From positions 1 through 49,586 of the forward strand of contig WJJK01000045.1 in assembly GCA_014729705.1 (NCBI GenBank): 49,586 nucleotides of DNA, given 5' to 3'. Origin of the DNA: Candidatus Altiarchaeales archaeon (GTDB lineage Archaea > Altiarchaeota > Altiarchaeia > IMC4 > SCGC-AAA252-I15). The first letter of the stretch is position 1. The number at the start of each line of letters is the position of its first letter. The notes beneath the pieces were generated by a model. The model made no database searches, was not told the origin of the DNA, and saw only the letters and a list, made by a program, of their open reading frames with translations. Of the stretch, positions 9,779 to 49,586 are shown piece after piece. A program made the position numbers and the translations under genes.

Positions 9779-9779
9779 G

Positions 9780-30300: not shown

Positions 30301-32844
30301 GCCCTTGGCCGGGTTTACTACACCGGTTATGCAGACACTGGTTACGAAGTCGCCGGAATGACCGAAGTTACGGTAGATGATAGCGGTGCTATTTCAGATT
30401 CGTCGATGCCCGGTGTCTTCAACGTCCGGCTGAACGATAACGGTAGTGCTGCCGTAAATCCTCCTGTTGTTGTCTCCGTTTCTGGTAGTGGAGGTATGGG
30501 TGTTGCCGGCGGGATTACTGCCCAGTCAGCGAACATCGGAACCGGTACCTTCACCGAATCTCTGACCATCTCTGGTGTTGCTGTCGACATCGCAAGTGGA
30601 GACGTCACGGACTACGGAGCGACTGGAGATGGCGTAACAGACGATACAGCAGCCATCCAGGCCGCTATGGACGCAGGGGGCGTTATAGTTGTACCATCGG
30701 GTGTATATTCTATAAATCAGGTAGATGTTACTTCCAAGGTAGACGTACGCGCATCTTCAGGGGCCGTCTTCCGGCAGCGCAGCACTGGAGATGAGAACAT
30801 CGCTTGTATCCGGTTTACCACAGGCTCGGACGGCTCGACGTGGGACGGAGGACAGTTCGACGGTGACGCCAGTACCCATGCTTCCAGCTACACGGGCAGC
30901 ACCGAGACCAACAAGCGCGTGTGGACTGGCATTCGGGTGGACGGGGCACCCGCGAATCTCCGCTTCCGCAACATCCACATGTACGACTTCCTGATGAGCG
31001 GCTTCTGGCACCAGAACGCTAACCAGACAGTGTGGGAGAACATTCTTATCGAGCGGTGCGGGAAGGCATTTATTTGTCAGAGAAACGATAGCGGAAGACT
31101 TGCCAACATCGTCTGCCACGAGATTCAAAACCGTAATAAAGCCATCTTCCAACACGCGATTGAGATTCGCGATGCCACCAATCTCACCGTGCTCGACATC
31201 GTCGTCACCGACTTCCAGCCGGACAACGCTGGTGTGGAGCCCACTCCCGGTGCGATTGCGTTCGAGCGGATGCGAGGTATGACTGCAGTCGGCCTCTCCG
31301 CCGACGGGTTTTCCGGGTCGGGCAAAGCAGGCATCGGATTCATTATCGACACCCTCGAGAAATCGAGCGTGACCGGCTTGCTGTGCCGGGACGGTTACGA
31401 GTCGGCTGCAACGGTCAACACATGCTGGGATTCCGCCATCGACCACTTCCACTTTGATCTGGCCTACGAGGACACCATCGGAGGAGGTGCCGAGGGAATC
31501 CGGATTCGAGGAGGAGGGCTCTTCCCGGCTATCGGAGACGGCACTGTGTCTGAGAACGCGAGGGCCAACGAGGGATGTAGGAATTTGCGTCTGTCGAATG
31601 GTCTCGTTATGCGTGCCGTGGGGCAGGGCTACCTGGTGCAGTCAGGGTTTGTGCAGTTCGTCAACTGTCACGCTCTGGGAAACACGCTGCACGGGTTCCA
31701 AAGCAATGAGAACTTGACGGGTGTGGGGACTTTCTCTGGCGGCAGTGCCGTCCCAGTAACTAACGTAGATTTACTGGGATGTTCAGCCACTTATAATGGG
31801 CTTACAGGCTTCTTTGTAGAAGAAGGCGCAAGTATGCAAATCATCGGAGGTTCCTATTCCAATAATGGTAGTGACACCACCGGAGGAAACCAGAGAGCCG
31901 GGATTAGATTACAAAATGCCTCTAAAATTCGCATCGTGGACGCAGATCTGGGCGACACCCAGGACTGGGCGACTAAGAGCCCCGGAGCCTCGTTCGAGCC
32001 TGGCAGCACCACCAACAACCAATTTGATTTGAGTTTGGTAGACCCCAGCTTTGTGCAGGTTGGCCAGTATCTGGTGCTCAAGAATGCCGATGGTTCTGGA
32101 GACGTGACGGCTAAAGTAATAGATAAGCGCAGAGATGACATTACGGTGGAGACATCAAGTCCAGTAACTTTCTCTGCTACGGGCAACACTTCTGCCCTAA
32201 CAGGCACTATTTCTACCACCGGCGTAACGGTTAATGGGACATCGACCGCCTTTCTAACTGAATTAACCGGAAGGACTTATATTGTCAACGGCGGCAACTA
32301 TCGACGTGTGATTCGGGTTAACTCAGACACTAGTGCCGTCATCGAAGAGGCGTTTCCGTCCGACCTGTCCGGTGCCAGCGTCTCCAAGCTGGAGATTGAC
32401 GTGGACCCCTCTTCTAACAATCGCCAGCAATTTGGGATTAGGATGGAAACTGCTGCTTCGGGGATTTATGTGCGGGGTTTGTATGGGGAGGTTTCTAACA
32501 CTTTCTGGAACTTCGCTGCTACCGCAGACCAGGGACTTGAGGCTGGGTCGGAGGTGCTCGGAACTGTAAGGCAGGTAGCCTCCGCTTCTTCGATGTCTGT
32601 GCCTAAAATACAGAACGGTTTTTTCCGGGTTACTGGAACCAACTCAATACAAACTATCCCTGCCCATCCTGAAGGGTCTCAGATTACTCTGTTGTTTAAT
32701 TCTACTGCTGATGTTGAACATAATGCCGGTAACATTTTGCTCCAGGGTGCCTCAGACTGGACCACTATATCCACCAACGATACTCTCACGCTCATAAGCG
32801 ATGGTGTGAACTGGGTTGAGGTGGGACGTTCCGACAATTCTTAG
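27319..32844 (+). CDS. giant mosaic fibre/tailspike protein (repeat stalk, C1q-like domain, His-repeat segment, pectate-lyase-like beta-helix)
   Basis: TTG start. About 10 SG[HS]LQxQID repeats. DVTDYGATGDGVTDDTAAIQAAMDAGGVIVVPSGVYSI is the typical N-cap of right-handed beta-helix depolymerases. Confidence 0.8.
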   Translation: MPKPNALPTYSKDNVLYADEGLSDLTPVGVIISSGTLISGALTFGSLVGDIDTANGAFSETLTVSGIPVDISAGGGPGAGVSSLNSQQGAITLQGQGGTTITTVGQTITISGATGGGSNDHSALNNLDFASSGHTGFASEAALTTTSGHLQNQIDGIDDHPRYTDAEAVSGTEAARVTLSGHLQSEIDLNASAILQLDGEVGALDSELVTVSGHLQDQIDNLPASSGTAASVNALQGSDGITVISGSNVDTIQGFRPEFIAASGSLQTQIDSIDTGSSTGGKALVGSDGITVVSGSNQVDIQGFRGEFVSASGTLQSQIDSNSSATSINTSNIADNTSQILTTSGHLQNQIDSIQIDELEPAIVGQDGITVTSGTNTTLTGFRPEFVAASGSLQSQIDSLGASELDTAIVGSDGIAVVSGSNEVEIQGFRNEFVASSGSLQNQIDNLDDIYATDAELVSVSGHLQSQITGSSDLQSAYDAGDGIITTSSGKPAELDGTGELVAVTGTFTQGLTIGSTSVDIYENSITIDGDRVVVEPDFVSASGYLDSRITSMDPNGISFKGAIVSKTNNQNLPSGANTPVNFQSVQYDHGGWFDASQPTRFTVPSGVSRVVVFANVSLENSGATGKQQVKITRNDQFGQPGFPIAGHAQETSSSDDLYNVCTAPIEVTPGDYFEVQVFHNQGAGIDVFGTGNTWFGIAADRTGFEIPLVGAGNVTVVSGTDVITISGSGSGGGDLTDAIVGAGGNTVISGSNTVTVSGFRDEFVLASGSLQGQLDSHTGDATLHFTEASIDHTNIQNVGSNTHAQIDSHISDSTIHFTEGSIDHDNIQNNGSNSHAEIDTHLAALATSGTTNASNLSSHTGDSTIHFTEGSIDHGSISGLGDDDHTQYTRADGTRAFTGDQSFGSNNITDVDTLYATLISGSEDATLGDAGFEGDGVVIDGTLRRSVLKSSDIGSNRLILIHKHRHDTTFPPAEAFSRSNTDDNSHAAVTNGQALGRVYYTGYADTGYEVAGMTEVTVDDSGAISDSSMPGVFNVRLNDNGSAAVNPPVVVSVSGSGGMGVAGGITAQSANIGTGTFTESLTISGVAVDIASGDVTDYGATGDGVTDDTAAIQAAMDAGGVIVVPSGVYSINQVDVTSKVDVRASSGAVFRQRSTGDENIACIRFTTGSDGSTWDGGQFDGDASTHASSYTGSTETNKRVWTGIRVDGAPANLRFRNIHMYDFLMSGFWHQNANQTVWENILIERCGKAFICQRNDSGRLANIVCHEIQNRNKAIFQHAIEIRDATNLTVLDIVVTDFQPDNAGVEPTPGAIAFERMRGMTAVGLSADGFSGSGKAGIGFIIDTLEKSSVTGLLCRDGYESAATVNTCWDSAIDHFHFDLAYEDTIGGGAEGIRIRGGGLFPAIGDGTVSENARANEGCRNLRLSNGLVMRAVGQGYLVQSGFVQFVNCHALGNTLHGFQSNENLTGVGTFSGGSAVPVTNVDLLGCSATYNGLTGFFVEEGASMQIIGGSYSNNGSDTTGGNQRAGIRLQNASKIRIVDADLGDTQDWATKSPGASFEPGSTTNNQFDLSLVDPSFVQVGQYLVLKNADGSGDVTAKVIDKRRDDITVETSSPVTFSATGNTSALTGTISTTGVTVNGTSTAFLTELTGRTYIVNGGNYRRVIRVNSDTSAVIEEAFPSDLSGASVSKLEIDVDPSSNNRQQFGIRMETAASGIYVRGLYGEVSNTFWNFAATADQGLEAGSEVLGTVRQVASASSMSVPKIQNGFFRVTGTNSIQTIPAHPEGSQITLLFNSTADVEHNAGNILLQGASDWTTISTNDTLTLISDGVNWVEVGRSDNS

Positions 32845-34152: not shown

Positions 34153-35109
34153 ATGTCAGTCCTCAAGCCTATCATTGATAGCATTGTCAATGGTACTTTG
34201 ACGATTACTGCAACGTCACCCTCGGCCGTGGGGACGATGTTTGATAAGATTCAGATCTTTAGGGCTACTTCTGTAAATGGTCCCTTCAGTCTTATAGCCA
34301 CTATAGATTTTTCTTCTCCTGCAGCCTACTGTGATTTAACCAGTACTCCTAAACTTTATTACAAAGCTCAGTATTACAATAGTACCACTATGGTTTCCAG
34401 TACGTTTTCTGATGTGGCACAGGAAACTGGTGTATTCTCCGAGTATAGCGTACCGGAAAGCACGGCTACCTATCCGCCAGAGTTGGCTCTTTCTGACAAC
34501 GATAGGGAAATCGTTGAGTCTATAAGGATAACCGTAGGAGATAGCGGTCTGATAGAGCGGGATCTTTACGATTCTTCTGACCCGCAGTCGGCAGCTGCTT
34601 GCGCTGCTAATATAGACCCAGCTGGTTGTACTTGGGAGTTAACAGAATGGAAAGGTTGGCCACAAAAGGTAGTTCTTAATGGGGAAGAGAAGACCAACAT
34701 CAACGACCCTCAGGTACTTGGTTATCGCTACCTTGTTTTTAGTGGTTCTGGGCCGTGTATTACAGGCTCTTTAGACGTTTTCTATAACCACTTCCGCTTC
34801 TCCGATCGTGAGATTTTATTGGCTTACGATCGGGCCAGAAATCTTTTGATTACTTGTGGTTTGCCGGAATCTAAGGTTACGACAGAGATGCGTATAATGC
34901 AGGCTGCCATTCTTCTTCTTGAAGGAGAGATTAGGGAGCTGTCTCAAAATGCGTTCCGCATTGTGGATGGAGATACTACCTATGATAATAGTGCTACCAT
35001 TCGTTCCCGAACTACTGATTTGGAGGACCTCAAGAGAAAGATTGACAGACTGATTGAATGTGCTCGCTATGAAGCGGCGTACGACATCCAAGGTTGTAGG
35101 ATAGACTAA
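34153..35109 (+). CDS. hypothetical virion-module protein
   Basis: 318 aa, with an AAAGGAGGA SD. Confidence 0.5.
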   Translation: MSVLKPIIDSIVNGTLTITATSPSAVGTMFDKIQIFRATSVNGPFSLIATIDFSSPAAYCDLTSTPKLYYKAQYYNSTTMVSSTFSDVAQETGVFSEYSVPESTATYPPELALSDNDREIVESIRITVGDSGLIERDLYDSSDPQSAAACAANIDPAGCTWELTEWKGWPQKVVLNGEEKTNINDPQVLGYRYLVFSGSGPCITGSLDVFYNHFRFSDREILLAYDRARNLLITCGLPESKVTTEMRIMQAAILLLEGEIRELSQNAFRIVDGDTTYDNSATIRSRTTDLEDLKRKIDRLIECARYEAAYDIQGCRID

Positions 35110-36866
35110 TGCCCAAAAAACTGGTCACCAACAAAATGAAGAAGGACTATAAAAGGCTGATGTCTCAGCTTGTTAGAGATCTTTCCCAGGAGCTGGTAAT
35201 AGTTCAGGAAAGTCCTATGTTTGTAGATTGTCCTAACTGTTTTGAAGCAGGAACCCTTATAGAGACACCTTTTGGAATGAAGAAGATAGAAGACTTCCAA
35301 CCAGGGGATTATATTTTGGACGGCAATGCAGAGCCTCGACTTGTGGATAAAGTATTTCATAGACATACTGACGCATCTTTCACGTCCATTTTTACACACG
35401 GTAACAATGTGGGGTTGACAGCCACTTCCAATCACCACTTAATGGTACATGAAAACAGGGGCACAGCCTACCATCCCATTTTAGGTGGGTCGAAAGAAAA
35501 AGAGATAGGTAACATACAAAAAGGCGATATAGTTTCTAAAGCGATCAGAAAACTACCCCAAGAGCCTTTAGAAAAGCTATGGGTTGATTGGAAAACAAAT
35601 ACACATGGACCTAAAAAAGTTTTGCCAGAAATCTTGGAAGTTACCGATGATTTCTTATTTGCTGTGGGTTTGTATTTGTCCGAAGGCGTTACAAGCAAAA
35701 GCCGAATAGTAAGTTACTGTCTTAATGACTTGGAAGAAGAAATAGGTCATAAAGTTTGTGCGTATTGGAAATCGGTTGCAGAATGTAACTACACGATGTG
35801 TACTAGAGGAGGGGGTAGGAATAGGATTTTTGAGATATATAGTTCTTATTTGGCTGATCTATTAGATAGTTGGTGTGGACACGGCGCGCAAAATAAAAAA
35901 ATACCCACCTCCTTGTATTACAGGTTGAATGCCCGTCAAACTTTAGTGTTGTTGTTTGGTTTGTTTGTCGGCGCTGGTCATTATGAAAAACAATATGATA
36001 GTGTGGTATTTAGTACTATTTCTAAATCGTTGGCATATCAAGTTTACAATCTACTTCTATCTTGTGGATTCGGTGCCAGTATACTTTCTCAGCCTAGTAA
36101 GGTGGGATCGGACGGCATTTTTAGACAAGAATCGTTCGTAGTTAGATATTGGACAAATAAAGATAAGGCACAAAGAGGGACAATAAGAACTGAGGATAGA
36201 ATCTATCAGGTAGTAAAATCTGTAGCGCACAGTCATAAATCAGTACCTGTTTGGAATCTAGAGGTTCAAACCGAACACAGTTATATTGCAGATGGCTTTA
36301 GTGTACAGAACTGCATATGGGATTCTGTTAATAAAAAATCCTCTAATGTCTTTGATGGTTCTTTTACGTCCGCAACTACTATTTTTTCTGGTACCAGTGA
36401 GGAGCGGGTTATAAATCCTATATCTTTCACTGTTGGACGTTGTCCTGTTTGTATAGGTGAAGGTCAGATTTTTACCAACAAAGAAATCTGCATTCCTGCT
36501 ATGATAAATTTTTTCTCTGGAACCGGCATGCGCCGTGGTTTATTTATGAGCACTGCTGCAGGTAAGGAAGGGATGAACTTGGTGGTGGTTAAGACTCTCG
36601 CCTGCCACTATGAACTTTTACAGAACAATGAAACTTTTTTTATTCATAACAATGTTAAATGTGTGAAGTTCAAGCCTCCTTTCCTAAGAGGGTTGGGTGG
36701 AGAAGAGACTGTTTGTGAGACTATTCTTCAGACTGCCGACGAAGGACAAAGGACTTCTGGTAAGTTTGGTGGTGGAGACAAGTTAAGTCGAGATGATGAT
36801 CCAAGAAAGAGGATAAGAGGTCCTTCTGATATTCTGGATCAGAGAGGTAAACTGAGAGGTAGGTAA
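35109..36866 (+). CDS. virion-module zinc-knuckle protein precursor containing a 358-aa intein
   Basis: Layout is ...FVDCPN | CFEAGTLIE...GFSVQN | CIWDS.... The 227-aa extein carries CPNC and CPVC pairs. Confidence 0.75.
   Translation: MPKKLVTNKMKKDYKRLMSQLVRDLSQELVIVQESPMFVDCPNCFEAGTLIETPFGMKKIEDFQPGDYILDGNAEPRLVDKVFHRHTDASFTSIFTHGNNVGLTATSNHHLMVHENRGTAYHPILGGSKEKEIGNIQKGDIVSKAIRKLPQEPLEKLWVDWKTNTHGPKKVLPEILEVTDDFLFAVGLYLSEGVTSKSRIVSYCLNDLEEEIGHKVCAYWKSVAECNYTMCTRGGGRNRIFEIYSSYLADLLDSWCGHGAQNKKIPTSLYYRLNARQTLVLLFGLFVGAGHYEKQYDSVVFSTISKSLAYQVYNLLLSCGFGASILSQPSKVGSDGIFRQESFVVRYWTNKDKAQRGTIRTEDRIYQVVKSVAHSHKSVPVWNLEVQTEHSYIADGFSVQNCIWDSVNKKSSNVFDGSFTSATTIFSGTSEERVINPISFTVGRCPVCIGEGQIFTNKEICIPAMINFFSGTGMRRGLFMSTAAGKEGMNLVVVKTLACHYELLQNNETFFIHNNVKCVKFKPPFLRGLGGEETVCETILQTADEGQRTSGKFGGGDKLSRDDDPRKRIRGPSDILDQRGKLRGR
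35238..36311 (+). mobile_element. intein with a (possibly degenerate) LAGLIDADG domain
   Basis: Starts with Cys1 (CFEAGTLI), has a TSNH block B, motifs FLFAVGLYLSEG and LLFGLFVGAGH, ends VWNLEVQTEHSYIADGFSVQN and is followed by a +1 Cys. Confidence 0.8.
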
Positions 36867-38489: not shown

Positions 38490-40367
38490 ATGGCAAGACG
38501 TAACCGAATTATCTACCCAAGCAATTCGGTTTGGGCAAACGGTAATGTGCTGTATCGGGTACAGACCTTCGGTTCAACCACCGCGTTTAACACCGAAGAC
38601 GTCTTCGAACTTGGTCAGCTAAAGGTTATTGACGTTGTGGATGACTCCCCAACGGTTACCGTAACCATTGAAACTGGCGAGTTCGGCTCTCTATCCAACC
38701 TTTACCATCTGTCTAACCTTGAGTTTGATAGCGTTATTTCCAATGACGCTGTTGCTGCTTCTGGTCACTTGACTGTGGTAAGTGGACTTGGAGATGATGC
38801 AGTTAACATTGCACACTACCACGGTGTAGCCCTGACTGACTTCGGTCTTTCTGGATGCGAGACTGGTTCGGCTGTTGAGATTTGGGCGCCCATTCAGAAT
38901 GAGTGCTCTCTCGGTACCGACAATGACGAGATTGATCAGACTATGTATCTGCCACGAGTGTTCGTCAACTCTATTGAGTGGACCTACTCCGCAGGTGCTA
39001 ACGCGGCTGAAAACTTCGGTGCAGAAACCGATGCTAAGTTCTGGTTTACAAATGATGGTAGGTTTATCTCTAATGAGGAGTTCGTATACACTTCTTCCCC
39101 ACCAGAAACTGACACCAACACAGGTGTAACTGGTGGTACCGGATTTAAGGTTGACGCTTCCGAGACCTCGGTTTACCTTGGTCTGGATCAGAATGCTGCT
39201 ACTGCCGAGCTTGTTTCTACTCGCTCTACCGGTCAGCTTGCGTTCTTACGCTTTGACGTGTTCGGTACTCCTTCAGTAAGGTACTACAACCGATCTACCA
39301 AGACTTCTTTTGAGGTCCCGGTAGAGGCTGGTACCGCTGCTAAGGCAGGTACTTACGTATACGACAGTACTGACAACCAGCTCTATGAGCCAACTGACTT
39401 GACCACCAACAACGAGCTTCTTGGTGAGGCTAAGGCAGATGGCGACATTCTGTTCGTTGTCTACGCTGCTAATCACTACGCCCGCCGATGGGAAGATCTT
39501 GATTCCACCACTCAGACTGACCGTGGTGGTGCTAAGAGCACTTCCAAGATGGCTACGCGTCGTGACGCAGAGTACTTTGCTCCGATTGAGATTGATCCAG
39601 GTGATAAGCCCGAAGACGTCGGCGCTGTTCGTCAGGGTCAGATCGAGATCTACCTCGTTGATAAGGACGTTCTACCGCCCGACTTCAATCTCGACAATGA
39701 GCTTGCTCTTAGAGTAACTTCCGTAACTATTACGGCAGATCTTACTCGTGAGCCGCTCTTTGAGCTCTCGCACCTTCGACCTTACGACCGATCGTTGACT
39801 TTCCCGATTCCATTCACAGTAACTGTTGAGACAACCGCATCCGATCTTACCGAGTATGCAACCTTCGCTTCCAAGAAGCAGGGAGTTGCAATCGATTTGA
39901 CCACGGATGAGGTTTCCATCTACGACTTCATGTCCGCTAATGAAAGACTCGACCTTGTCGTGCTCATTTATCAGCAGACAGATGAGGAAGCAGGTGGTGT
40001 AGGTTCTCAGCGAAGAGTGGTAACTCGAGAGATGGTTGGTGATGAATACTATCAGAGAGGACAGAGGTTCATCTATTACGATGGCACCACTTCCGATCCT
40101 GATACTGGTATCAACTACGGTACTAGCATCCCGGTTTCTCCAACAAAGGATAACACTCACCGCGAGCGACCTCTTAAGACCGTTATTGCGAAGGATCTGC
40201 GAATCACTGACGAAGCGTACAACCTCACCCTTGGTGAGAACGCTACTCAGACATACGGTTTCCGAGGTACCAACCGAGTCTTCGCCGTTCTTGGTGAAGT
40301 CGATACTGGTGACCTTGTTGCCGATCCTGGATTCCAGGTCAATCCGGACGCTCCACGAATCTTCTAA
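38490..40367 (+). CDS. major tail structural protein (sheath-like by size and position; family not verified)
   Basis: 625 aa. It has its own 125-nt upstream gap, a strong AAGGAGGA SD, and is followed by two tandem hairpins. Confidence 0.45.
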   Translation: MARRNRIIYPSNSVWANGNVLYRVQTFGSTTAFNTEDVFELGQLKVIDVVDDSPTVTVTIETGEFGSLSNLYHLSNLEFDSVISNDAVAASGHLTVVSGLGDDAVNIAHYHGVALTDFGLSGCETGSAVEIWAPIQNECSLGTDNDEIDQTMYLPRVFVNSIEWTYSAGANAAENFGAETDAKFWFTNDGRFISNEEFVYTSSPPETDTNTGVTGGTGFKVDASETSVYLGLDQNAATAELVSTRSTGQLAFLRFDVFGTPSVRYYNRSTKTSFEVPVEAGTAAKAGTYVYDSTDNQLYEPTDLTTNNELLGEAKADGDILFVVYAANHYARRWEDLDSTTQTDRGGAKSTSKMATRRDAEYFAPIEIDPGDKPEDVGAVRQGQIEIYLVDKDVLPPDFNLDNELALRVTSVTITADLTREPLFELSHLRPYDRSLTFPIPFTVTVETTASDLTEYATFASKKQGVAIDLTTDEVSIYDFMSANERLDLVVLIYQQTDEEAGGVGSQRRVVTREMVGDEYYQRGQRFIYYDGTTSDPDTGINYGTSIPVSPTKDNTHRERPLKTVIAKDLRITDEAYNLTLGENATQTYGFRGTNRVFAVLGEVDTGDLVADPGFQVNPDAPRIF

Positions 40368-40380
40368 AGGTCGATTTTCT

Positions 40381-40432
40381 GCTGTCCCGGGTCCCGCCCG
40401 GGGCAGCAACAAGTTCCTCCGTCTTTCGGAGG
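40381..40432 (+). terminator. two tandem GC-rich hairpins
   Basis: GCTGTCCCGGG tcccg CCCGGGGCAGC (11 bp including one G-U pair), then CCTCCG tcttt CGGAGG. Confidence 0.5.
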
Positions 40433-40469
40433 GGTAAGGAATGAGTTTAAGGGAAAGGAGATTATTCTC

Positions 40470-40748
40470 ATGGTTTCCAGGGAAGAAAAGTCCCTGGGTA
40501 AATCCCAGGAAAAGCTCAAGAGAGATGTGGAGAGAAGCGTCCTCAAGAGCGCTGATGAGATCCTGAACATTGCTGAAGTCGCAATAGCTGATTCCCAGCG
40601 GTACAGGGCTTTTAGATCTAAGGTTCTTCGTTCAGTCAATGACGCTGTTCGGGAAGTTAAGAAGAACCTTGATCTTCATTACAAGGTGGTGTACGTGCCT
40701 ACTAACGAAGACGTTATAGAGGTACAGCAGCCAAGAGTTAGAAGTTAG
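40470..40748 (+). CDS. hypothetical small helical protein
   Basis: 92 aa, with an AAAGGAG SD. Confidence 0.45.
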   Translation: MVSREEKSLGKSQEKLKRDVERSVLKSADEILNIAEVAIADSQRYRAFRSKVLRSVNDAVREVKKNLDLHYKVVYVPTNEDVIEVQQPRVRS

Positions 40749-40769
40749 GCAAAGGATAAGGAGACATAA

Positions 40770-41639
40770 ATGGCAACCGCAAAGGACGTCAAGGACGTGC
40801 TGGATACACGTCGCGAGTTTACTCTTGAAAACCCTGACGGAGAAACTGAAAGTTATTTTATTGCCCAGCCGAGCGCTGCGGACATAAGAAAAGCAGATTG
40901 GCAATACTCCAAGGTTTATAACCAGGCTATTGTTGATGGTTTTTTAACTCAATCCCAGATGTTGGAAGTTCTTAAGGACAAGGGTATTCTTTCCGAGGAG
41001 TACACCGAGCAGCTTGAGAGCGTGAGAATCAATCTGGCAGCAGAACTTTTTAAGCTTGAAAATCTCGGAAATGAAACCCCCGATGATGACCGTGAAGCTG
41101 TTGCTATGGAAGTGGCGCGCTTAAGAGATCAGCTCTTCCGGCTAAATCAGCAAGTTAACGGTCCTATGGGGAATACCTGTGAGAACTTAGCCGAAGATGC
41201 CCGAACCGAGTTTCTAACCAGTAGGGTAGTTCAGAAGCAAGATGGATCTCGTCTGTGGGAAACCTTTGATGATTATCAGAACGAAGAAAACTCCGGTTTA
41301 TCTGTTAAGGCTCGTTTTGAAGTTATGCTTTGGATGCAGGGACTTGAAAGCAACTTCATGGAAAATACTCCAGAGCAATCTACTCTCAGGGAAGTAGCCC
41401 AAAAGAGATTAGACAACGCCCTTGAAGAGGCCAGAAAATCTGCTTTGGAACAGTCTGAGAAAGAAGAAAAGGAAAAGCGGTCCGGAGAAGATTCCGAGAA
41501 AACCAAGGCTGAGAAGAAGGCTCCACGAAAGAAGAAGACTCCTAAAAAGAAGGCTTCCTCCTCCAAGAAAGAGGAGAGTTCTCCTGCTCCCAAGAGACGA
41601 AGAGGTCGTCCTCGAAAGGATGAGAAGAAGGAAGAATAA
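40770..41639 (+). CDS. chaperone-slot protein A with a Lys-rich tail and AT-hook-like RRGRPRK
   Basis: 289 aa and a paralogue of the next gene (both share W[EK]TFDD[YF]xNE). Tail reads KKAPRKKKTPKKK...KRRRGRPRKDEKK. Confidence 0.5.
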   Translation: MATAKDVKDVLDTRREFTLENPDGETESYFIAQPSAADIRKADWQYSKVYNQAIVDGFLTQSQMLEVLKDKGILSEEYTEQLESVRINLAAELFKLENLGNETPDDDREAVAMEVARLRDQLFRLNQQVNGPMGNTCENLAEDARTEFLTSRVVQKQDGSRLWETFDDYQNEENSGLSVKARFEVMLWMQGLESNFMENTPEQSTLREVAQKRLDNALEEARKSALEQSEKEEKEKRSGEDSEKTKAEKKAPRKKKTPKKKASSSKKEESSPAPKRRRGRPRKDEKKEE

Positions 41640-42781
41640 TGTCTGAAGAGGGGACTTCTGGGGAGAAGATAAGTCTTTCTTTTCAAGAAGTGGAATCTCT
41701 ACTGGATTCTGTTCTTAATAACCAAAGACTCCAGCAAATAGACTTACCTGATGGCTCTCCGAGATTTGTTGTTTTTTGTTTTCCGACTGGCCCAGAACTT
41801 TTGGCTGCTCGCTATACGAGGGACAAGACTTTGGCGGAGGCGGCAGCCGAGGGTTTGCCCACCATAGAAGAAATGGATAGGCAGATACAAGAGAGGGGTT
41901 TACTTGAAGACGTAGACCAGAGTATAAAGGATTTGGAAGAACGTCTTGAAGGACAAAGGGCCATTCTTAACAAGACACAAATACCGGGGCGTAGATCGGC
42001 CGTAGAAGAAGTTATTAGCAAGATACAGAGTGATCTTTATGGCCTTAGATCTAAGAAAGAGTCCTATTACTATTTAACCCAGGAAAGAAAAGCCGATGAA
42101 GTTTCTTACAGATACTTAGCCTGGGCATCTACTTATTCTATTGAGGGTGGTAAGTATTGGAAGACCTTTGACGATTTTGAGAATGAGACAGACATTTATT
42201 TTCAAACTGAAGTTCTTGGGCATTTTGCTAAATTTAACTCAGGTCTTCCTGCCAAAAAGGTCCGTTACCTAGCCCGACATAATCTTTGGCGCATACGTTT
42301 CGTAGCAGCCACCAAAACGGGGGCGGGACCGTCCCTGTTTTGTCGTAGATTTAATGATTTGACTCCAGACCAACTTGGCCTCCTATACTGGAGTAACTAT
42401 TATCAATCCATTTACGAAATGCTTCCGGATGATCAACCTGATCAAGAGATCATCGAGGACGACGAGAAGCTTGATAAGTACATGGAGGATTATTTCAAGC
42501 AAAAGGAGGCGGAGAGGAAAGAAGGAAAGGCTGAAAAGAGGAGCGATGTCTCTGGACATCCTAAGGGTTATAAGCCCAAGCTTAACGCTTGGGAGCGAGG
42601 AGAGGAGCTAATCATTACCCCTTCCCACCCAGAATACCAAAGTCTGGCATACACCGAGAAAAGAATAAACGCCCCTGAGGGCACTTCTGAGGTAGAAGTT
42701 ATTTCTCCTAATAGTAGGAGGGCCAGGAACAGAAGAGCCCAGGCGCGAAGCCAGTCCAGTATGCGTGGAAGGAAACGATAA
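41639..42781 (+). CDS. chaperone-slot protein B (paralogue of A) with an Arg-rich tail
   Basis: 380 aa, TAATG-coupled. Shares the PDG...G(L/F)(P/L)T and WKTFDDFENE blocks. Tail reads RRARNRRAQARSQSSMRGRKR. Confidence 0.5.
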   Translation: MSEEGTSGEKISLSFQEVESLLDSVLNNQRLQQIDLPDGSPRFVVFCFPTGPELLAARYTRDKTLAEAAAEGLPTIEEMDRQIQERGLLEDVDQSIKDLEERLEGQRAILNKTQIPGRRSAVEEVISKIQSDLYGLRSKKESYYYLTQERKADEVSYRYLAWASTYSIEGGKYWKTFDDFENETDIYFQTEVLGHFAKFNSGLPAKKVRYLARHNLWRIRFVAATKTGAGPSLFCRRFNDLTPDQLGLLYWSNYYQSIYEMLPDDQPDQEIIEDDEKLDKYMEDYFKQKEAERKEGKAEKRSDVSGHPKGYKPKLNAWERGEELIITPSHPEYQSLAYTEKRINAPEGTSEVEVISPNSRRARNRRAQARSQSSMRGRKR

Positions 42782-42804
42782 TCCTACGGCGGAGGAAAAG
42801 GTAG

Positions 42805-45800
42805 TTGGTAGAAGAGAGCTTCAAGCTTAATCTAAATATAGAACTTGATGAAAGTGGCCTTGCGGGACTTCAAAAGCAGATAGAAAGAAGTGTAAATAAA
42901 GCTTTCTCTGATGCTTTTAGAAAGGTCAAGTTGCCTACGCCCGGCGCTACAGGAGGTGGCGCTGGTCCTACTCCGGCAACTGCACGAAGTGCCCGTGAGG
43001 CTATTTCTGTATCTGGGCAAGATCTTGGAAAGAGTGTCCAGCAAGCTTTGAGAGGCGAGCTACGCGGATTCGAAGCTGCTGCTAAACGTATGGAACAGGC
43101 GGTAGACAGATTGGCGCGCGTCATGGGAGGAGGACGCGGAGGCGGAGCTGCTTCTGGAGGCCCTTCCAGAAGACAACAACAGGTTGAGGAAGTTTTTAGG
43201 GCCCGCGTTGGTCGTATATCCGAGATGCGAGGGAGGCAAAGAACTGCCCGAGAAGCTGGAACTCCTGCCGGAGAACGAGAAGCCGAGCGCCTTGAGGTGG
43301 AGATAGCCAGAGAAAAGAAAAAGGCTTTTAGAACAGCACAGAGACGCCAGCGCCTCCAGGAACAGTCTGCTAAGGCGGCCGAAAGAACTGCCAAGTCTGA
43401 GGAAGACCTAGCCCGCTCCACAGAGAAGCTGGCGGCTGCACGTCGGAGAGAGGCTGCTGCTACCGAAAGCAGAGGGCGTCAAGGTGCCGGTCCTTCCGGC
43501 CCTGCCCCTACACGTGGAAGAGAACAGGTAGCTTCCCGGCAAGTAGGTGCTTCCAATCAACAGACAGGTGCTAATATAGATGTCACCCGACGTTCGGGTT
43601 CTCAAAGGACCGCCGGATCCACTGGAGAAATTGTAACCGATGCCCCTCGTATTCGCGATAACAGAGTAGGTACTGTACAGGATAGGCCTCAGTTTAGAAA
43701 GGAAGCACAAGAAAGAGAGAGGGCCAGGGCCGGAGCCGGTGCGGAATATATAAAGAGTGCTCAGGCTACCTCCGAACGGGTTGCTGCAAGCATAGGAAAG
43801 CTTGAAGCGGCTATTAGAACTATGCCTCAGTTTAGGGATGTTGATCTTTCCAAGGCTCTTGGGCTGCCAGGCAAGGAGTCCCTTGGTGTTGGTAGAGGAG
43901 CAGCTGCCACCGTTAAGCTTCCTTCTGGAGAAGAGAGGGTTATACGCCAGGCAGTTAATATTCTATCAGATGAGATGGGCAAAGTTTCTGTTGAGGCTGG
44001 GGACGTAATCTCCAAGCGTATTGACAAATTGCTTTCCAGTGAAGCTATGAGTAAGATAGGTAAGACAGCCCGTTTCCGACCTGAGCGCGCCGAAAATATG
44101 CTCAGGGCGGAAATAGGCAAGATATTTGAAGCTCCTAAGCTTGAATCTACTAAGGTAATGGGCGGTTTTGCTACAGCCGGACAGTCCCATATGACTTTCA
44201 AGCCTACAGAAGAACAGCGCAAAAGAATAGCATCCAAGGCCCCTGGGGCAGAGCAGATAGCAGAGGCTATGGTAGTTCTGCAGGAAATGTCCAGGGAATC
44301 CGAATCCTTCAAAAAGGCAGGGCTTGAGGTTGTACATGTTTTGGGTATGGCGGAGCAGGACGCTGCTGCAATGGCAGATTCTATCGAAGCTTTTGCTAAG
44401 GGAGCTTCTGATAGTATAGAGGGAATTGTTCAGACAAGAAATCTGGCGGCTATGGGTGTTGGTGGTGCCGGAACTATGAGACAAGCACGTTCCTTCCTTG
44501 TTACCCAAACACAAGAGATGGTAGGGGGAGAGGAACCCAAGATTAAGGGAATAGGAGAAGAAGCAGCATACGCTGGTGATATTTTTGGAAAGAGAGCGGT
44601 AAAGCATCTCAAAACTGCTGTTGTTTCTGCGGACCTTATGCCCGAGCTTAAGGAAGATCAGTTCCTACTGGACAAAAAAGCAGCAGAACAGATGGGTATG
44701 ATAGAGAAAAAGAGTAAGCTTGTTAAAGATGTTGGTGAGGACATAGTTCCTGGTATGAAGTTGCAACATAAGCAGGTACTGGGGGCTGATGTAAAGGGTA
44801 GAGCTGTAGAGTTTGACCTTAAAGGGGCTGAGGCCGAGGTTAAGAGAGTAGAAAAAGTCATAAAGAATGGTGTTGAGGCTTGGAAGATTCATTATGAAGA
44901 GCTCAACCAGATGGTTACGGGTGGTAAGATGACCACCCGCGCCGGCGGTAAGGGTATAGTACGAGTTGAGGAGGATATTGCCGGTAAATACGGTCTTCCT
45001 AAGGGAACTCAAGTGGCTATGTCGGCTGAAGGTATGGCCAAGAGAGGCGATTTAAGGAGCATGATTGAGATGCATGCTTCTAACATTTCTGAGGCTACTA
45101 CTAAGTCAGGACAAGAAGTGGCTGACATGATAGTAGATAGAATGAAGCACGGTTCTGATTATATGGGAGAAACCATTGATCAGGCCATAAAGAACGTCGC
45201 GTCTGAGTTAGGTATTAAGGGCTATACTGGTGCAGAGGTTATGCGGGAAGGTCCTCTGGCTAAGGGCAAGGGAGGCGAAGCGGCAGTTATGACCGGTGAG
45301 CTGGCTTGGATGCGCCTGGCAAAGGAGGGACAGAGAGGTCCGGCCCCTGTGGACCCTCGTTTCTTGGATAAGCCCGCCCAACAGGCCATGGAGCAGCGCG
45401 CCGAAACTGTTGCCCAGTCCAAAGCCATGCAGAGTGAGATGTCAAAGGTTATAGAAAGTAACTACGAGTACGTAGCTACCTTGCAGTCTATTGCTGGCGC
45501 TACGGACGAGGTCACAGAAGGTTTGAAGGAAGTCAAGCCGGAGAGATTCAAAGGACTCACTGGCGGAATGATGGATCCTTCTACACTTAAGGGAACCCTC
45601 TTAGATCCTGATCTTGCCGAGCCCCTAAAGGTTATGTTGCCCAAGAGGGGTGGCGGTGAGGAGGCTATGCGCTTGCCCTCTATGGGAAGGGGTCTGGGTA
45701 AGCGTGATTATTTTGAGACTGAACTAGGTCAGGTGGGTGCCAGTGACATAACTAAACTTTATGATAAAATAATCCAGCAAGCCAAACAAATAAGAGTGGC

Positions 45801-48800
45801 TACTGGACAAGTAGACATTACCGAGGATGCTGAGGCTTATGGAGAGGCAGCTCAAATAACTTCCAGGGCCATGAAGGACCAGATACAAACGATCTATAAG
45901 TTGGGTTCTAAAACTGAAGAAGGTAAGGCGGCGATGAAAGAGTTCATCGATTCCTTTATGCCTTTAATAAAGCAGCTTGAAGGACCTGCAGGTATTGAGT
46001 ATCAGAAGGTAAAGAAGACAGGAGAAAGGGAAACAGTTGCTTATCAAGGTACCGCAGAAGAGTACGTACAGAGCCGTAAAACTCTTGAACAAAAGATGTT
46101 CGGTATTCAGGACTTGCTGTCTGAAAGATCGGCCCGCCGGGCCAAAGTAAGTCCTCAGAGCGCTTGGGGTAGGCAGGGTTATGTCGCAACCGAAAACGTA
46201 CCTCGCGCAGGTGCTATGTTTGATCCTAAAAATGCAGAAGTACTTAGAAAGTCTATGGATCTTTTGGGAGTATCCTTAGAGGAGGATGCGGAGCATGTTG
46301 ACAAGCTTCATGACAGGTTAGAGAGGCTTAAGTCAATACTTGTAGAGACTCTGTCCATGGCAGGTGTAGGAACCGCGGGCGGACGCCCTGCTTCCGAGTC
46401 TTTGCGCCCCTACGCTCAGGCCATGGGGGGCGGTATAGCTGAGGCACCTATGGGGGTCGCTACAGAGTTTAGAACAGATATATCTGCTTCTCTTGCGAAG
46501 GCTAAAGAAAGATTAGAGCAGCTGGCTGATTCTGGTAAGAACGTAGATCAGGCCCTTGCGGCGGTGGAGAGGATTTCTGCCCTCCAGACTGATGTGGAAG
46601 GTTTGCCTCGCGACGCTGTTATGTTGAGTGAGACAGATTATGAAAATCTCAAGCAGTCTATTATGAAGCGGCAGCGAATAGGCGAAGCTGAAGCCACCAA
46701 GAGAATGGAAAGAGGTGTTTCTCTGCGCTACCCAGTGACTGGTGGTCAGAGTATGCAGGCAGTTAAGATTCTAAAAGATACAATGGGTAAGCTACCGGAA
46801 GGTAAGATTGGCGTTGCAGGACCTCCTGCCGGAGAACCTGAGGACATTGAAAAGGTCACAGGTCAACTTAGTGAGTTTAGAGCTTCCCTTGCCAAGGTTA
46901 TAGAGGATAATAAGGGTTTCGGTGCTGAAGCGGATCAAGCACGCTCTGAAATAGCCGAACTGGATCCAGTTATAGAGGGACTTCGACAGTCTTTCCTTAG
47001 CGCTACTCAGAATCTTGATTTCGACGGAGACAAGATTGCTGTATTTGGAGCGCTGACAGAGGAGGCATCGAAGTCTCTTCGTACGTTCACTGAAGTTGCT
47101 ATGAGAGGAGGAATGTCCTTTGAAAACATAATGAGTACTATTTTGACTGCTTCCAAGGGCAAGCCTGGCGGAGGAATGGGAGGTGTCGAAGAATACGCTC
47201 AGTTGTTCGGCCAGGTTGCTAAGGGCAGGACTGGTAAGTACCGTCAAGCAGTTATGGCTCCTGACACTACAGAGACTACGCGTTTTGAGTCCACAGCCCA
47301 CACAGCCGGAAAGTTGTCCGTTAGTTTGCTCACTGATGCCTTCAATAAGCTTCAGATGTCTATTCTAGGGGGAGCTGAGCAGACCGGAGACGCGATGTCT
47401 ACTGCGGTAGAGCGTATAATGTTGTTTATTAACAAATCCCTGGCACAAAAGCACGGCGGTGGGGGAGCCGGCGGGGCTGACCCTATGGAATTTATAGAGT
47501 CCTTCCGTAGAGGACCTGAAGGTCTTAAGGAAATCTTTTCCGGTATGGATGAGATGGGAGATGATATCTACGGAGAGCTCGGTAAGTTCAACAAAGAATA
47601 TCGTGAGCGTATGTACAACATGCTCATCGCTCAACCAAGAGATACTGTTCAAGAGTTAGCTAAGCAAGCTGGGGTTTTGGAGAGCGAAGCGGACCTAACT
47701 CCGGAAACTTTTATACCTGTTATAAAGGACATGGTTAATGAGCTGGACCTAAAGGGACAGTTTAAGCGTATGTGGGAAATGCTTGAAGACAACATGAAGC
47801 AATCTCTTATGAAGGAGGGTATGTCTGCGGAAGAAGTATCTGCCAAGATGAGGGATATGCTTACAAAGCCTACCAAACAGACTGGTAAACCGGCAGGACT
47901 GGATCTAAATAGACTGATGAAGAACATGTTCCCGGAGTACAGGGCTACCCGAAAGGTAGGGGTAAGGGAGATGGAGGGAGAATCTCCTATGGGTAAAGCC
48001 CAACAAGTACTTAAGATGTTGGGGCTTCATGTGGCCGAGAGAATAGAAGAGACAGAGGAATACTTTGATGAAGACGTAATACAAGGGGCAGCAGTACAAC
48101 TTATATCTAAGATTCATTCTTTCTTAGAGTCTGTTTCTGATCAGTTTGAGATATCTACCACTGCTGAGTTTGCCCAGAGACTCGGAAGAACTCCCGAACA
48201 AGCTGCTGGAGTAAGAGGTCAGTACATTAGAGGAAAGGGCGATGAGCCTGGTAAGATAATGCTTTCCGAGGAGAAAATTTTCAAGCCCCTTATAGAGGCC
48301 ATTGCTACCTTGGATAGGGTCGCTAAGGGAGAGATACCTCCAACAGTTGAAGCTTTCCAAAGCCTTGGTGAGGCTTTGTCTAGGTTTGCTTCTACCATGT
48401 CCCACGAAGGTATCCATAAGGCCGCAGACCAGTTCCCTGAAGTTATACAAAATCTGGTCCGACGTATAACTTCCTCAAGTGGTGATCTAAGCCAGCACTC
48501 GGGAGCTATTTATGAAGCCTTAAGTAAGCTTTCCAATGTGGCTAAACTTAGAGGTAAGTTTGAGCAGGTTTCCAAGGCCCAGAAGGGAGGTGCTACTGAG
48601 TTTGCAGGGATGCCTATAAAGGAGGCCAAGCAGGAGATAGGTCGTCGTTTGGCCAGAGTTTCTACAGAGGAGTTAGTCGCTCACCTGGCCGATCGCCAGA
48701 AGTGGCAAAAGGTATTTGGTCACCTTCCAGAAACTGTACAGCAAGCAGCCAGGGATGCATTTGAAGAACTCTCCCAGTCTGCACCTGACATTGTAAAGCC

Positions 48801-49586
48801 TGTTCAGAATTGGTCAAATGAAATTCTATCTTCTCTTGTTGAAATAATGACTTCTACTTTCCAAGGACAAGGTGTGGGGGCTGCCAGAGAGGCTGCCCAG
48901 CAGAGAAGAGATGCCTTGGAGTCGGGGGAGCCTTACCCCGGTAGAGAAAGATTCCATCAAATGCGCGAAGTTTTGGGTAAGGGAGAAGAAACCCTGGCAT
49001 ATGGTAGAAGAACCCATGGACTTGCTCCTTTTCAGAAAGCAGAAGGAAGAGTTGGTATAGGTGGTCGCCTCGAAATAGGAGGGGAGCAGGTAGTAGGTCA
49101 GATAGGTGCCCAGGTACGCAATCTTTTGGAGAGCGCTCTTAGAGGAGGAGCATTTGATGATCCTGGTGCTGCAGCTGAGTTGGAGAAAGATTTTAAAGCC
49201 GCTGCCCGTCAGTACTATGAGGCTTTGAAGGGCCTTGGTAGGGATCAGTTTAGCGGAAACGCTTGGAAGGAATACAACAAGGTTCTTCTCGAGTTCCAGG
49301 CAGCTGAGGCGCAGTCTCTTATAAACAAAGCGCGCCAGATGGAAGAGCAGATTTCAGAAATGAGAAAGGCAGGTCAGACTGACATGCCTGAGTTCCGCGA
49401 TCTGCTGGATAGATTTAATGAAACGGTTCAAGAACTTTTCCGTTCCTACGAGAAGAACATTAAGTTAGGAGGCAAAGGAAGAGGTACTGCCTCCGGACTG
49501 GCCGTTACCCCGGACCAGCTAATCTCTGAACCGGCATTGGAGATGGGTGTTAAGCCTACGGGCGCACAATATCAGCAAGTAATGCA
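42805..49586 (+). CDS. giant virion-module protein (>2,260 aa, 3'-open) containing RpoB-like and RpoC-like double-psi beta-barrel motifs: candidate single-chain RNA polymerase
   Basis: Hand translation of frame 1 is open from TTG 42805 to the window end, with GGAGG at 42791-42795 and an in-frame TAG at 42802-42804. GGKMTTRAGGKGIV lies at 44920-44961, RYPVTGGQSMQAV at 46726-46764 and NLDFDGDKIAVF at 47011-47046. The ORF is absent from the supplied track. Confidence 0.8.
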   Translation, partial: MVEESFKLNLNIELDESGLAGLQKQIERSVNKAFSDAFRKVKLPTPGATGGGAGPTPATARSAREAISVSGQDLGKSVQQALRGELRGFEAAAKRMEQAVDRLARVMGGGRGGGAASGGPSRRQQQVEEVFRARVGRISEMRGRQRTAREAGTPAGEREAERLEVEIAREKKKAFRTAQRRQRLQEQSAKAAERTAKSEEDLARSTEKLAAARRREAAATESRGRQGAGPSGPAPTRGREQVASRQVGASNQQTGANIDVTRRSGSQRTAGSTGEIVTDAPRIRDNRVGTVQDRPQFRKEAQERERARAGAGAEYIKSAQATSERVAASIGKLEAAIRTMPQFRDVDLSKALGLPGKESLGVGRGAAATVKLPSGEERVIRQAVNILSDEMGKVSVEAGDVISKRIDKLLSSEAMSKIGKTARFRPERAENMLRAEIGKIFEAPKLESTKVMGGFATAGQSHMTFKPTEEQRKRIASKAPGAEQIAEAMVVLQEMSRESESFKKAGLEVVHVLGMAEQDAAAMADSIEAFAKGASDSIEGIVQTRNLAAMGVGGAGTMRQARSFLVTQTQEMVGGEEPKIKGIGEEAAYAGDIFGKRAVKHLKTAVVSADLMPELKEDQFLLDKKAAEQMGMIEKKSKLVKDVGEDIVPGMKLQHKQVLGADVKGRAVEFDLKGAEAEVKRVEKVIKNGVEAWKIHYEELNQMVTGGKMTTRAGGKGIVRVEEDIAGKYGLPKGTQVAMSAEGMAKRGDLRSMIEMHASNISEATTKSGQEVADMIVDRMKHGSDYMGETIDQAIKNVASELGIKGYTGAEVMREGPLAKGKGGEAAVMTGELAWMRLAKEGQRGPAPVDPRFLDKPAQQAMEQRAETVAQSKAMQSEMSKVIESNYEYVATLQSIAGATDEVTEGLKEVKPERFKGLTGGMMDPSTLKGTLLDPDLAEPLKVMLPKRGGGEEAMRLPSMGRGLGKRDYFETELGQVGASDITKLYDKIIQQAKQIRVATGQVDITEDAEAYGEAAQITSRAMKDQIQTIYKLGSKTEEGKAAMKEFIDSFMPLIKQLEGPAGIEYQKVKKTGERETVAYQGTAEEYVQSRKTLEQKMFGIQDLLSERSARRAKVSPQSAWGRQGYVATENVPRAGAMFDPKNAEVLRKSMDLLGVSLEEDAEHVDKLHDRLERLKSILVETLSMAGVGTAGGRPASESLRPYAQAMGGGIAEAPMGVATEFRTDISASLAKAKERLEQLADSGKNVDQALAAVERISALQTDVEGLPRDAVMLSETDYENLKQSIMKRQRIGEAEATKRMERGVSLRYPVTGGQSMQAVKILKDTMGKLPEGKIGVAGPPAGEPEDIEKVTGQLSEFRASLAKVIEDNKGFGAEADQARSEIAELDPVIEGLRQSFLSATQNLDFDGDKIAVFGALTEEASKSLRTFTEVAMRGGMSFENIMSTILTASKGKPGGGMGGVEEYAQLFGQVAKGRTGKYRQAVMAPDTTETTRFESTAHTAGKLSVSLLTDAFNKLQMSILGGAEQTGDAMSTAVERIMLFINKSLAQKHGGGGAGGADPMEFIESFRRGPEGLKEIFSGMDEMGDDIYGELGKFNKEYRERMYNMLIAQPRDTVQELAKQAGVLESEADLTPETFIPVIKDMVNELDLKGQFKRMWEMLEDNMKQSLMKEGMSAEEVSAKMRDMLTKPTKQTGKPAGLDLNRLMKNMFPEYRATRKVGVREMEGESPMGKAQQVLKMLGLHVAERIEETEEYFDEDVIQGAAVQLISKIHSFLESVSDQFEISTTAEFAQRLGRTPEQAAGVRGQYIRGKGDEPGKIMLSEEKIFKPLIEAIATLDRVAKGEIPPTVEAFQSLGEALSRFASTMSHEGIHKAADQFPEVIQNLVRRITSSSGDLSQHSGAIYEALSKLSNVAKLRGKFEQVSKAQKGGATEFAGMPIKEAKQEIGRRLARVSTEELVAHLADRQKWQKVFGHLPETVQQAARDAFEELSQSAPDIVKPVQNWSNEILSSLVEIMTSTFQGQGVGAAREAAQQRRDALESGEPYPGRERFHQMREVLGKGEETLAYGRRTHGLAPFQKAEGRVGIGGRLEIGGEQVVGQIGAQVRNLLESALRGGAFDDPGAAAELEKDFKAAARQYYEALKGLGRDQFSGNAWKEYNKVLLEFQAAEAQSLINKARQMEEQISEMRKAGQTDMPEFRDLLDRFNETVQELFRSYEKNIKLGGKGRGTASGLAVTPDQLISEPALEMGVKPTGAQYQQVM

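Follow-up and report, generated by a model that had tools for sequence, protein, structure and literature searches.

The window analyzed here is a 49,586-nucleotide stretch of DNA (contig WJJK01000045.1, assembly GCA_014729705.1). Its last gene, which comes after those for the terminase, portal and major head protein, is a giant open reading frame (ORF) that appears to encode an RNA polymerase (RNAP) joined to a phage tape measure protein (TMP). The ORF starts behind a ribosome-binding site (Table 1) and is open from TTG 42805 through the window end, and the window holds the 5' 6.8 kb of a gene of ~14 kb. Its N-terminus (V-E-E-x-F-K) is kept in the homologues P0002 and P0003, and the translated part is collinear with residues 1-2301 of the 4,653-aa P0003 at 53% identity. 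Amino acids (aa) 1-400 (42805-44000) are weakly conserved except for the first ~50 residues; the region is R/A/E/G-rich and charged, and has a low-complexity look. The NCBI record of the ORF (MBD3260378.1) is a "hypothetical protein, partial" from a metagenome-assembled genome binned as Candidatus Altiarchaeales. The archaeal label of the contig is probably a binning artefact. The content of the window is that of a tailed virus with GGAGG ribosome-binding sites, the nearest relatives of its portal are Bacillus siphophages (24% identity), and no tRNA genes are found in the 49.6 kb.

The preliminary description of this DNA, made from the sequence without database searches, proposed an RpoC-type catalytic barrel at 46726-47090. 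The in-frame translation of this segment is RYPVTGGQSMQAVKILKDTMGKLPEGKIGVAGPPAGEP...SATQNLDFDGDKIAVFGALTEEASKSLRTF. It contains NLDFDGDKIAV (nt 47011-47043), in which the codons GAT TTC GAC GGA GAC occupy 47017-47031, in agreement with the position first given for DFDGD and with its numbering as D1405/D1407/D1409 from TTG 42805. The E. coli beta' string given there for comparison is exact against rpoC 418-478. The three aspartates align with beta' D460/D462/D464 and are invariant in the family, which supports their identification with the aspartate triad of two-barrel polymerases. Both R-x-P-x-T-G-x-x-S and N-x-D-[FIL]-D-G-D are invariant in 19/19 giant homologues, which are 25-60% identical over aa 1231-1830, and the invariant residues include R1308, P1310, T1312, G1313, S1316, G1333, N1403, D1405, D1407, G1408 and D1409. 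The ORF also passes the published filter [RK]xPx{20,100}DxDxD, with a spacing of 94 residues from P1310 to D1405. Of the longer pattern said to be shared with beta', R-x-P and N-x-D-F-D-G-D stand, but Q-A and L-T-x-E-A are not conserved among the homologues; therefore, these last matches to beta' are coincidental. A minus-strand ORF of 169 aa (46792-47301) lies antisense to the catalytic barrel and, since the plus-strand frame is conserved, is almost certainly spurious.

A word-indexed protein search returned the NCBI record itself and a single homologue, P0002 (3,769 aa; 36% identity over 2,059 aa), which keeps NLDIDGDK. A tblastn search of the ORF against 50,697 phage records gave nothing relevant, and no relatives came from two pattern-based scans, of viral and of genome contigs. 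When 1.84 billion representatives were searched exhaustively with a profile of the core (aa 540-1520) and P0002, 41 proteins were recovered. About 20 of these are 4,000-5,285 aa long, and their alignment spans all 985 columns of the core, at their residues ~430-1520. All full-length members carry [NA]-[LAM]-D-[FIL]-D-G-D. Distant members of ~1,000-1,160 aa (P0032, P0034, P0037 and P0039; alignment A3) carry both barrel motifs in stand-alone proteins. The cut-off of RNA_pol_Rpb2_6 (PF00562; 23.4 bits) is passed by P0032 (28.5 bits), P0034 (23.6 bits, by 0.2 bit) and P0037 (32.3 bits), and that of RNA_pol_Rpb1_2 (PF00623; 25.3 bits) by P0034 (32.7 bits) and P0037 (26.8 bits); P0032 (24.6 bits) misses the latter by 0.7. 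Thus P0034 and P0037 pass both thresholds and P0032 the first only, whereas the giant family passes none. The whole ORF does not reach the gathering threshold of either model, and its homology to RNAPs is visible via profile-profile comparison and structure only. The A3 profile matches bacterial and archaeal beta subunits in the PDB (E 1e-4) and, weakly, the "tape tail measure protein" crystal chains 8H2M/8H2N of Thermus phage P23-45. The gene of P0034 sits among phage nucleotide-metabolism and helicase genes, and the P0034 phage has no other genes in common with the window.

The profile comparisons of the catalytic segment depend on a 52-aa insertion (aa 1341-1392). With the insertion kept, the segment matches A3 by hhalign at 70.7% over 27 columns, at the DFDGD flank only. 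With the insertion spliced out, the match rises to 91.5% (E 8.6e-7, 68 columns) and runs from the R-x-P strand to past DFDGD, on the stretch of P0032 that matches Rpb1_2. The spliced profile, compared with the single E. coli RpoC sequence (1,407 residues), lands on residues 418-478 (p 2.4e-4, 41% identity, 58 columns). A profile of the beta' half gives only spurious matches to designed helical repeats in the PDB. The results for the spliced barrel, together with the conservation described above, uphold the proposed RpoC-type barrel and support reading this segment as the catalytic barrel, of the beta' type, of a two-barrel RNAP. The support for this assignment comes from profile-profile comparison, conservation and collinearity, and not from a significant direct fold match.

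The insertion had been estimated at ~60 aa and is slightly shorter. In the AlphaFold2 model it forms a hairpin with helices at aa 1345-1368 and 1374-1397. A separate metagenomic group of 970-1,600-aa proteins (P0035 at L005 67-4851, P0040 and P0042) has the motif QQKLDFDGDxIxxH. P0035 aligns to window positions 46720-47079 across the insertion at 33% identity, and its DFDGD is only 145 aa from the C-terminus. Because this group aligns across the insertion, the 52-aa element seems to predate the tape measure family.

A second barrel, of the beta-subunit type, sits ~690 aa upstream of the DFDGD barrel and is the source of the strongest structural matches. In nearly all full-length homologues T-G-x-K-x-T-T-x-x-G-x-K-G occurs ~690 residues before DFDGD. 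The invariant residues K708 (44926-44928), K716 (44950-44952) and R747 (45043-45045) align with K1065, K1073 and R1106 of E. coli beta, which belong to the barrel signature GDKMAGRHGNKGV...PSRMN of that subunit. The beta-like profile lands on residues 1058-1131 of E. coli RpoB. The giant family matches A3 by hhalign at 99.3% (E 2e-20) over 489 columns, which comprise the N-terminal domain and the beta-like barrel.

AlphaFold2 modeling of aa 541-1740 with a 24-sequence family alignment gives a mean predicted local distance difference test score (pLDDT) of 85.1 and a predicted template modeling score (pTM) of 0.76. A Foldseek search of this core model against the PDB gives 404 matches at E<=1e-3. 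The top 50/50 are second-largest RNAP subunits of bacterial, archaeal, eukaryotic and poxviral origin (E ~1e-8, ~360 columns). The top matches in BFVD are beta subunits of giant-virus RNAPs. Two further BFVD entries align to the model: A0A8S5SD80_1, a "Minor tail protein" of uncultured Siphoviridae sp. ctnpt50 (1,182 columns), and A0A7R7G2L5_2, an unnamed viral protein (1,429 columns of the polymerase model alignment). Similar fusions may therefore sit unrecognized in UniProt already. The preliminary description had named an all-helical fold with DFDGD buried in a helix as an outcome that would speak against a barrel. At pLDDT 85, the model instead shows DFDGD (model residues 865-869) as a loop, with a short helix before it and a beta-strand directly after it (loop and strand 865-875). 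Of the profile and structure comparisons suggested there, the Foldseek matches to beta-type subunits are significant, whereas the direct matches to PF00623 are below threshold and those of the isolated sub-model to beta' are non-significant.

The two barrels are separated by a structured connector of ~540 aa. It occupies the position of the clamp-forming connector in other two-barrel RNAPs and, going by the model, may have a comparable function. Downstream of the beta'-type barrel, the model has a 33-residue helix with the invariant K1503, which is a candidate bridge helix, followed by a helix-loop-helix that is a candidate trigger loop. The QKHG motif of the latter is common to the giant family and A3, but its His is not invariant across the giant family. 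The bridge-helix/trigger-loop stretch matches A3 with a probability of only 41.6% and has no direct match to a known bridge helix, so both elements are named here by their position in the model.

Between the polymerase and tape measure parts there is an HExxH motif. H1867, E1868 and H1871, together with E1956, are invariant in 19/19 aligned members. The region has no credible Pfam or PDB profile match to a peptidase fold, and a weak match to Tox-MPTase2 (E 0.03) is seen in 3/14 members. Judged by its residues, the motif is a possible zinc-peptidase site. It may serve as a cell-wall peptidase or in release of the polymerase.

Table 1. Coordinates of the giant ORF, its polymerase elements and the upstream packaging and head genes in the window.
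Feature	Position (nt)	Strand	Basis or remark
GGAGG ribosome-binding site	42792..42796	+	8 nt 5' of the TTG start codon
Giant ORF, first 2,260 codons of a ~4,600-aa protein	42805..49586	+	TTG 42805; cut by the contig end
RNA polymerase core as modeled, aa 541-1740	44425..48024	+	AlphaFold2 and Foldseek
Beta-subunit-type double-psi barrel, aa 632-750, reading VTGGKMTTRAGGKGIV...AKRG	44698..45054	+	Motif, hhalign
Structured connector (~540 aa) between barrels, aa 751-1295	45055..46689	+	Per-block pLDDT mostly 70-94; mixed helices and strands
Beta'-type double-psi barrel, aa 1296-1420	46690..47064	+	Translation, conservation, profile-profile alignment
R1308-Y-P1310	46726..46734	+	Aligns with E. 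coli beta' R425-A-P427; R and P invariant in family
Helical-hairpin insertion (52 aa) inside beta'-type barrel, aa 1341-1392	46825..46980	+	Whole family and P0035
N1403-L-D1405-F-D1407-G-D1409, predicted Mg2+-binding loop	47011..47031	+	Aligns with beta' N458/D460/D462/D464
Candidate bridge helix (33 residues), aa 1489-1521, with invariant K1503 and GKLSVGLLTDxFN motif	47269..47367	+	Model
Candidate trigger loop (helix-loop-helix), aa 1529-1568, with INKSLAQKHGGGG motif (QKHGGGG)	47389..47508	+	Model
H1867-E-G-I-H1871 (HExxH), possible zinc-peptidase site	48403..48417	+	Invariant; with invariant E1956 at 48670-48672
Terminase ORF, 1,023 aa, unusually long	13553-16624		N-terminal half: helicase/endonuclease PHROG matches; terminase matches mostly in C-terminal half
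Portal	16625-18511		Upstream of giant ORF
Major head protein	26166-27233		Upstream of giant ORF

The identity of the ORF as a tape measure gene comes from its homologues. PF10145 (PhageMin_Tail) is found in P0002 at 2370-2561, in P0003 at 2577-2772 and also in P0014. The equivalog-domain model TIGR01760 (tape_meas_TP901) matches P0003 at residues 2536-2875 with 145 bits (cut-off 28.8), and a hydrophobic segment follows the tape measure domain in this protein. Three family members are named "TP901 family phage tail tape measure protein" in IMG. In the collinear full-length homologues (3,769-5,285 aa), the chain runs on into a tape measure domain of the TP901 type. Since the window copy is cut at aa 2260 and is collinear with P0003, it is predicted to be the N-terminal half of a TMP, the half that contains the polymerase. 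Both barrels are homologous to those of RNAPs, the catalytic residues are conserved, and in the full-length homologues the polymerase is fused to the TMP.

The two genes directly 5' of the giant ORF are kept in the P0002 and P0003 loci. Three genes 5' of the ORF (38490-42781, compared with L001 1-3019) share 81%, 70% and 53% identity with their counterparts at the P0002 locus, against 36% for the giant ORF; therefore, the giant ORF seems to evolve much faster than its neighbors. Elsewhere in the window, a nucleotide-metabolism cluster at 8093-10382 encodes a thymidylate synthase (ThyA, 417 bits), a dihydrofolate reductase (DHFR) and a deoxynucleoside monophosphate (dNMP) kinase. The portal is followed by an 878-aa ORF (18528-21164) with a chitin-binding CBM_14 match, two copies of DUF6582 and a 96-nt repeat at 19479-19574 and 19770-19865. 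A 1,841-aa ORF (27319-32844) has a pectate-lyase-like domain and six coding repeats of ~42 nt (27841-29646, peptide EFV.ASGSLQ.QID), and is probably a fibre or depolymerase. A 585-aa ORF in the structural module (35109-36866) has Hint, intein-splicing and LAGLIDADG matches and looks like an intein-type insert.

A precedent for a polymerase within a tape measure protein is gp96 of Thermus phage P23-45. This is a 5,002-aa TMP in which residues 327-1124 form a two-barrel RNAP with DFDGD at 779-783 (Chaban et al., Nat Commun 2024, PMC10770324). Virions contain this protein, which shows activity in vitro and both binds and transcribes the pre-early genes, among them one for a second, non-virion RNAP (PMC10770324). 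This precedent, the upstream beta-type barrel and the tape measure identity all lie beyond the preliminary description, which was concerned with the DFDGD barrel.

Taken together, the giant tape measure gene probably encodes a single-chain two-barrel RNAP (aa ~540-1750) that is delivered with the virion for early transcription. The beta-like barrel (K708, K716 and R747) and the beta'-like barrel (R1308, N1403, D1405, D1407 and D1409) would lie opposite each other and together build a single active site, in which the aspartate triad would hold the catalytic Mg2+. The elements in the bridge-helix and trigger-loop positions would follow the beta'-like barrel. Going by the P23-45 precedent and by tape measure biology, the polymerase-TMP chain would be assembled into the tail lumen, where the TMP would fill the tail tube and exit the virion first at infection. 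As a consequence of the covalent joining of polymerase and TMP, the polymerase would arrive with the leading DNA end at the envelope or in the cytoplasm of the host. It could then transcribe the first (pre-early) phage genes without the host RNAP, as gp96 does in P23-45. For this protein, catalysis, RNA synthesis from a DNA template, packaging in the virion and a part in early transcription are predictions.

Several observations weigh against this interpretation. The 2,260-aa ORF has nothing relevant in Pfam, PHROGs, NCBIfam or PDB sequences. The sole relevant Pfam match of the spliced barrels is PF00623 at 12.8-15 bits, below its cut-off of 25.3. The isolated sub-model of aa 1231-1830 has a pLDDT of 69, worse than the same region in the full model, and its Foldseek matches, which are mostly beta' chains, agree with the beta' assignment but are non-significant (E 0.4-2). 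For this copy, the tape measure domain would lie past the end of the window, and the homologues used to place it are 36-53% identical. A folded polymerase of >1,200 aa with a large connector is hard to fit into the lumen of a tail tube. The structure of gp96 is flat and clamp-less, with a short and disordered connector (residues 613-679), which was proposed to permit tail passage (PMC10770324; PDB 8H2M/8H2N); the constraint of the lumen is the presumed reason for this shape. The P23-45 system also has its second RNAP. The window, which is an incomplete genome, has no second DxDGD ORF or A3-like gene, and no second polymerase gene is found in the window or in two related loci. Finally, the only repeated motifs found in a search of the 49.6 kb for promoter-like repeats are Shine-Dalgarno sequences and coding repeats.

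The alternatives differ in how much of the interpretation they give up. The most radical holds that DFDGD arose by chance within a giant protein of helical, low-complexity character. Much of the ORF is indeed helical and compositionally biased, which gives spurious coiled-coil matches. However, NxDFDGD has an expected count of 9e-6 in a protein of such length and composition, D[hydrophobic]DGD turns up in 0.5% of 20,000 versions with shuffled residues, and the motif is conserved in every full-length homologue. Chance is excluded for DFDGD on these grounds, as the preliminary description had anticipated. The second barrel and the significant fold and profile matches (Foldseek, and hhalign of both the giant family and the spliced barrel with A3) refute the same idea, which deserves almost no credence. 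It is highly improbable that the domain is an inactive relic, derived from a polymerase and kept as a structural or length-setting part of the TMP. In its favor, no Pfam match is above threshold, the predicted activity is read from sequence, and the His of the trigger-loop-like QKHG varies across the family. Against it, homologues with only 25-43% overall identity all retain the aspartate triad, N1403, R1308, R747 and the two barrel lysines, a pattern that indicates selection on catalysis and not on bulk.

The polymerase could also be real and the TMP assignment wrong, with the protein being an internal or ejected giant virion protein of the crAss-like or N4-like kind that has a PhageMin_Tail-like segment. 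No tail tube, sheath or chaperone genes are recognizable in the window, and the giant proteins of crAss-like and N4-like phages that contain virion RNAPs are not tape measures (PMC10770324). This is nevertheless very unlikely given the TIGR01760 match, which is far above its cut-off over 340 residues of the closest full-length homologue (P0003), the hydrophobic segment behind it, and the long-tailed Bacillus siphophages to which the portal is related. A different substrate is another alternative: the enzyme may use an RNA template, as QDE-1 does, or synthesize primers or DNA in the manner of archaeal PolD, for instance to prime replication of the injected genome. The two-barrel fold is common to the QDE-1 RNA-dependent RNA polymerases and PolD (PMC10770324), the sequence evidence does not tell template or product apart, and QDE-1 (2j7n) is in the weak match list of the sub-model. 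That fold match is non-significant (E 0.97, probability 0.02), however, and the comparison with QDE-1 and phi14:2 gp66 suggested at the outset yielded no sequence match to 2J7N or 6VR4 in the PDB with either the ORF or the profile. In fact, these PDB searches gave no polymerase match at all, and hence none to PolD. All significant structural and profile matches are to beta subunits of DNA-dependent RNAPs and to Pfam RNAP families, and the sole characterized TMP fusion is a DNA-dependent RNAP. A substrate other than that of a DNA-dependent transcriptase therefore appears unlikely.

Within the preferred reading, in which a DNA-dependent RNAP is carried by the TMP, a more specific scenario can be put forward tentatively, although it is doubtful in its entirety. 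The fusion may have arisen independently (convergently) in a lineage unrelated to the Thermus Oshimaviruses and now form a widespread, unannotated environmental clade of ~20 clusters at 50% identity. With a full-size connector or clamp retained, the polymerase would need to pass the tail as an unfolded chain, and the HExxH site would cut it free after ejection.

So far, the demonstration of a TMP-fused virion RNAP has been limited to P23-45 and close relatives among the Thermus phages, and the arrangement might have been peculiar to thermophilic phages with extreme tails. The homologues of gp96 are in P74-26, G20c and TSP4 (PMC10770324). Here the same architecture is found with sequence-unrelated parts in ~20 divergent metagenomic lineages, annotated only as "hypothetical" or "tape measure protein". 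Its recurrence from unrelated parts suggests that injection of a TMP-borne polymerase is a recurrent strategy for host-independent early transcription. The giant proteins would thus constitute a sequence-unrelated, unannotated and apparently widespread family of TMP-fused two-barrel RNAPs, of which the architecture itself was published in 2024. The family provides a second, structurally different test case for the storage and tail-tube passage of an enzyme of >130 kDa. Its members are candidates for compact single-chain RNAPs, with invariant residues that offer targets for mutagenesis.

Compared with gp96, the present protein is alike in that a giant ORF (4,000-5,300 aa) takes the place of the tape measure gene in the structural module of a tailed phage. 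In both, an N-terminal single-chain two-barrel RNAP with a DFDGD loop is followed by a tape measure region with hydrophobic segments. Both also have a metal-peptidase-type feature between or after the modules, which is an annotated metallopeptidase domain in gp96 and the invariant HExxH here; gp96 has no HExxH. The polymerase module is ~1,200 aa here and ~800 aa in gp96 (~1.5x). The connector of ~540 aa is confidently folded, whereas that of gp96 is short and disordered and forms no clamp. The present family also differs in its near-canonical GxKxTTxxGxKG in the beta-like barrel and in the 52-aa helical insertion in the beta'-like barrel. BLASTP of P0003 against gp96 gives no match (best E 0.49). 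The hhalign comparison of the giant family with gp96 residues 1-1300 gives 0.2%, and barrel-only comparisons give 4.8% and 0.2%. The other structural proteins of the window have no match in P23-45. The giant family is accordingly not part of the gp96 family, from which its folded connector sets it apart as well. Supplementary Data 4 of PMC10770324 lists uncultured siphoviruses with two single-subunit RNAPs under the in-house family "Cyano_RUMTOR_01356".

The cellular RNAPs (E. coli RpoB/RpoC; Rpb2/Rpb1) have both barrels and the residues equivalent to those conserved here, namely K1065/K1073/R1106 and R425/N458/D460/D462/D464. In the giant family, however, the two barrels are on a single polypeptide in beta-then-beta' order, no other beta/beta' domains or small subunits are detectable, and identity is confined to the barrel cores. 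The single-chain two-barrel architecture is shared with crAss-like phi14:2 gp66 and Neurospora crassa QDE-1. The polymerases gp66 and N4 virion RNAP are packaged in virions within giant proteins and injected for early transcription (PMC10770324), but gp66 is not a tape measure and the N4 enzyme is a T7-like right-hand polymerase, not a two-barrel one. The stand-alone RNAPs of A3 lack the tape measure fusion and the 52-aa insertion and have a shorter connector than the giant family. They are still the nearest detectable relatives, with the N-terminal domain, beta-like barrel and beta'-like barrel in the same order and with NLDFDGD and QKHG in common.

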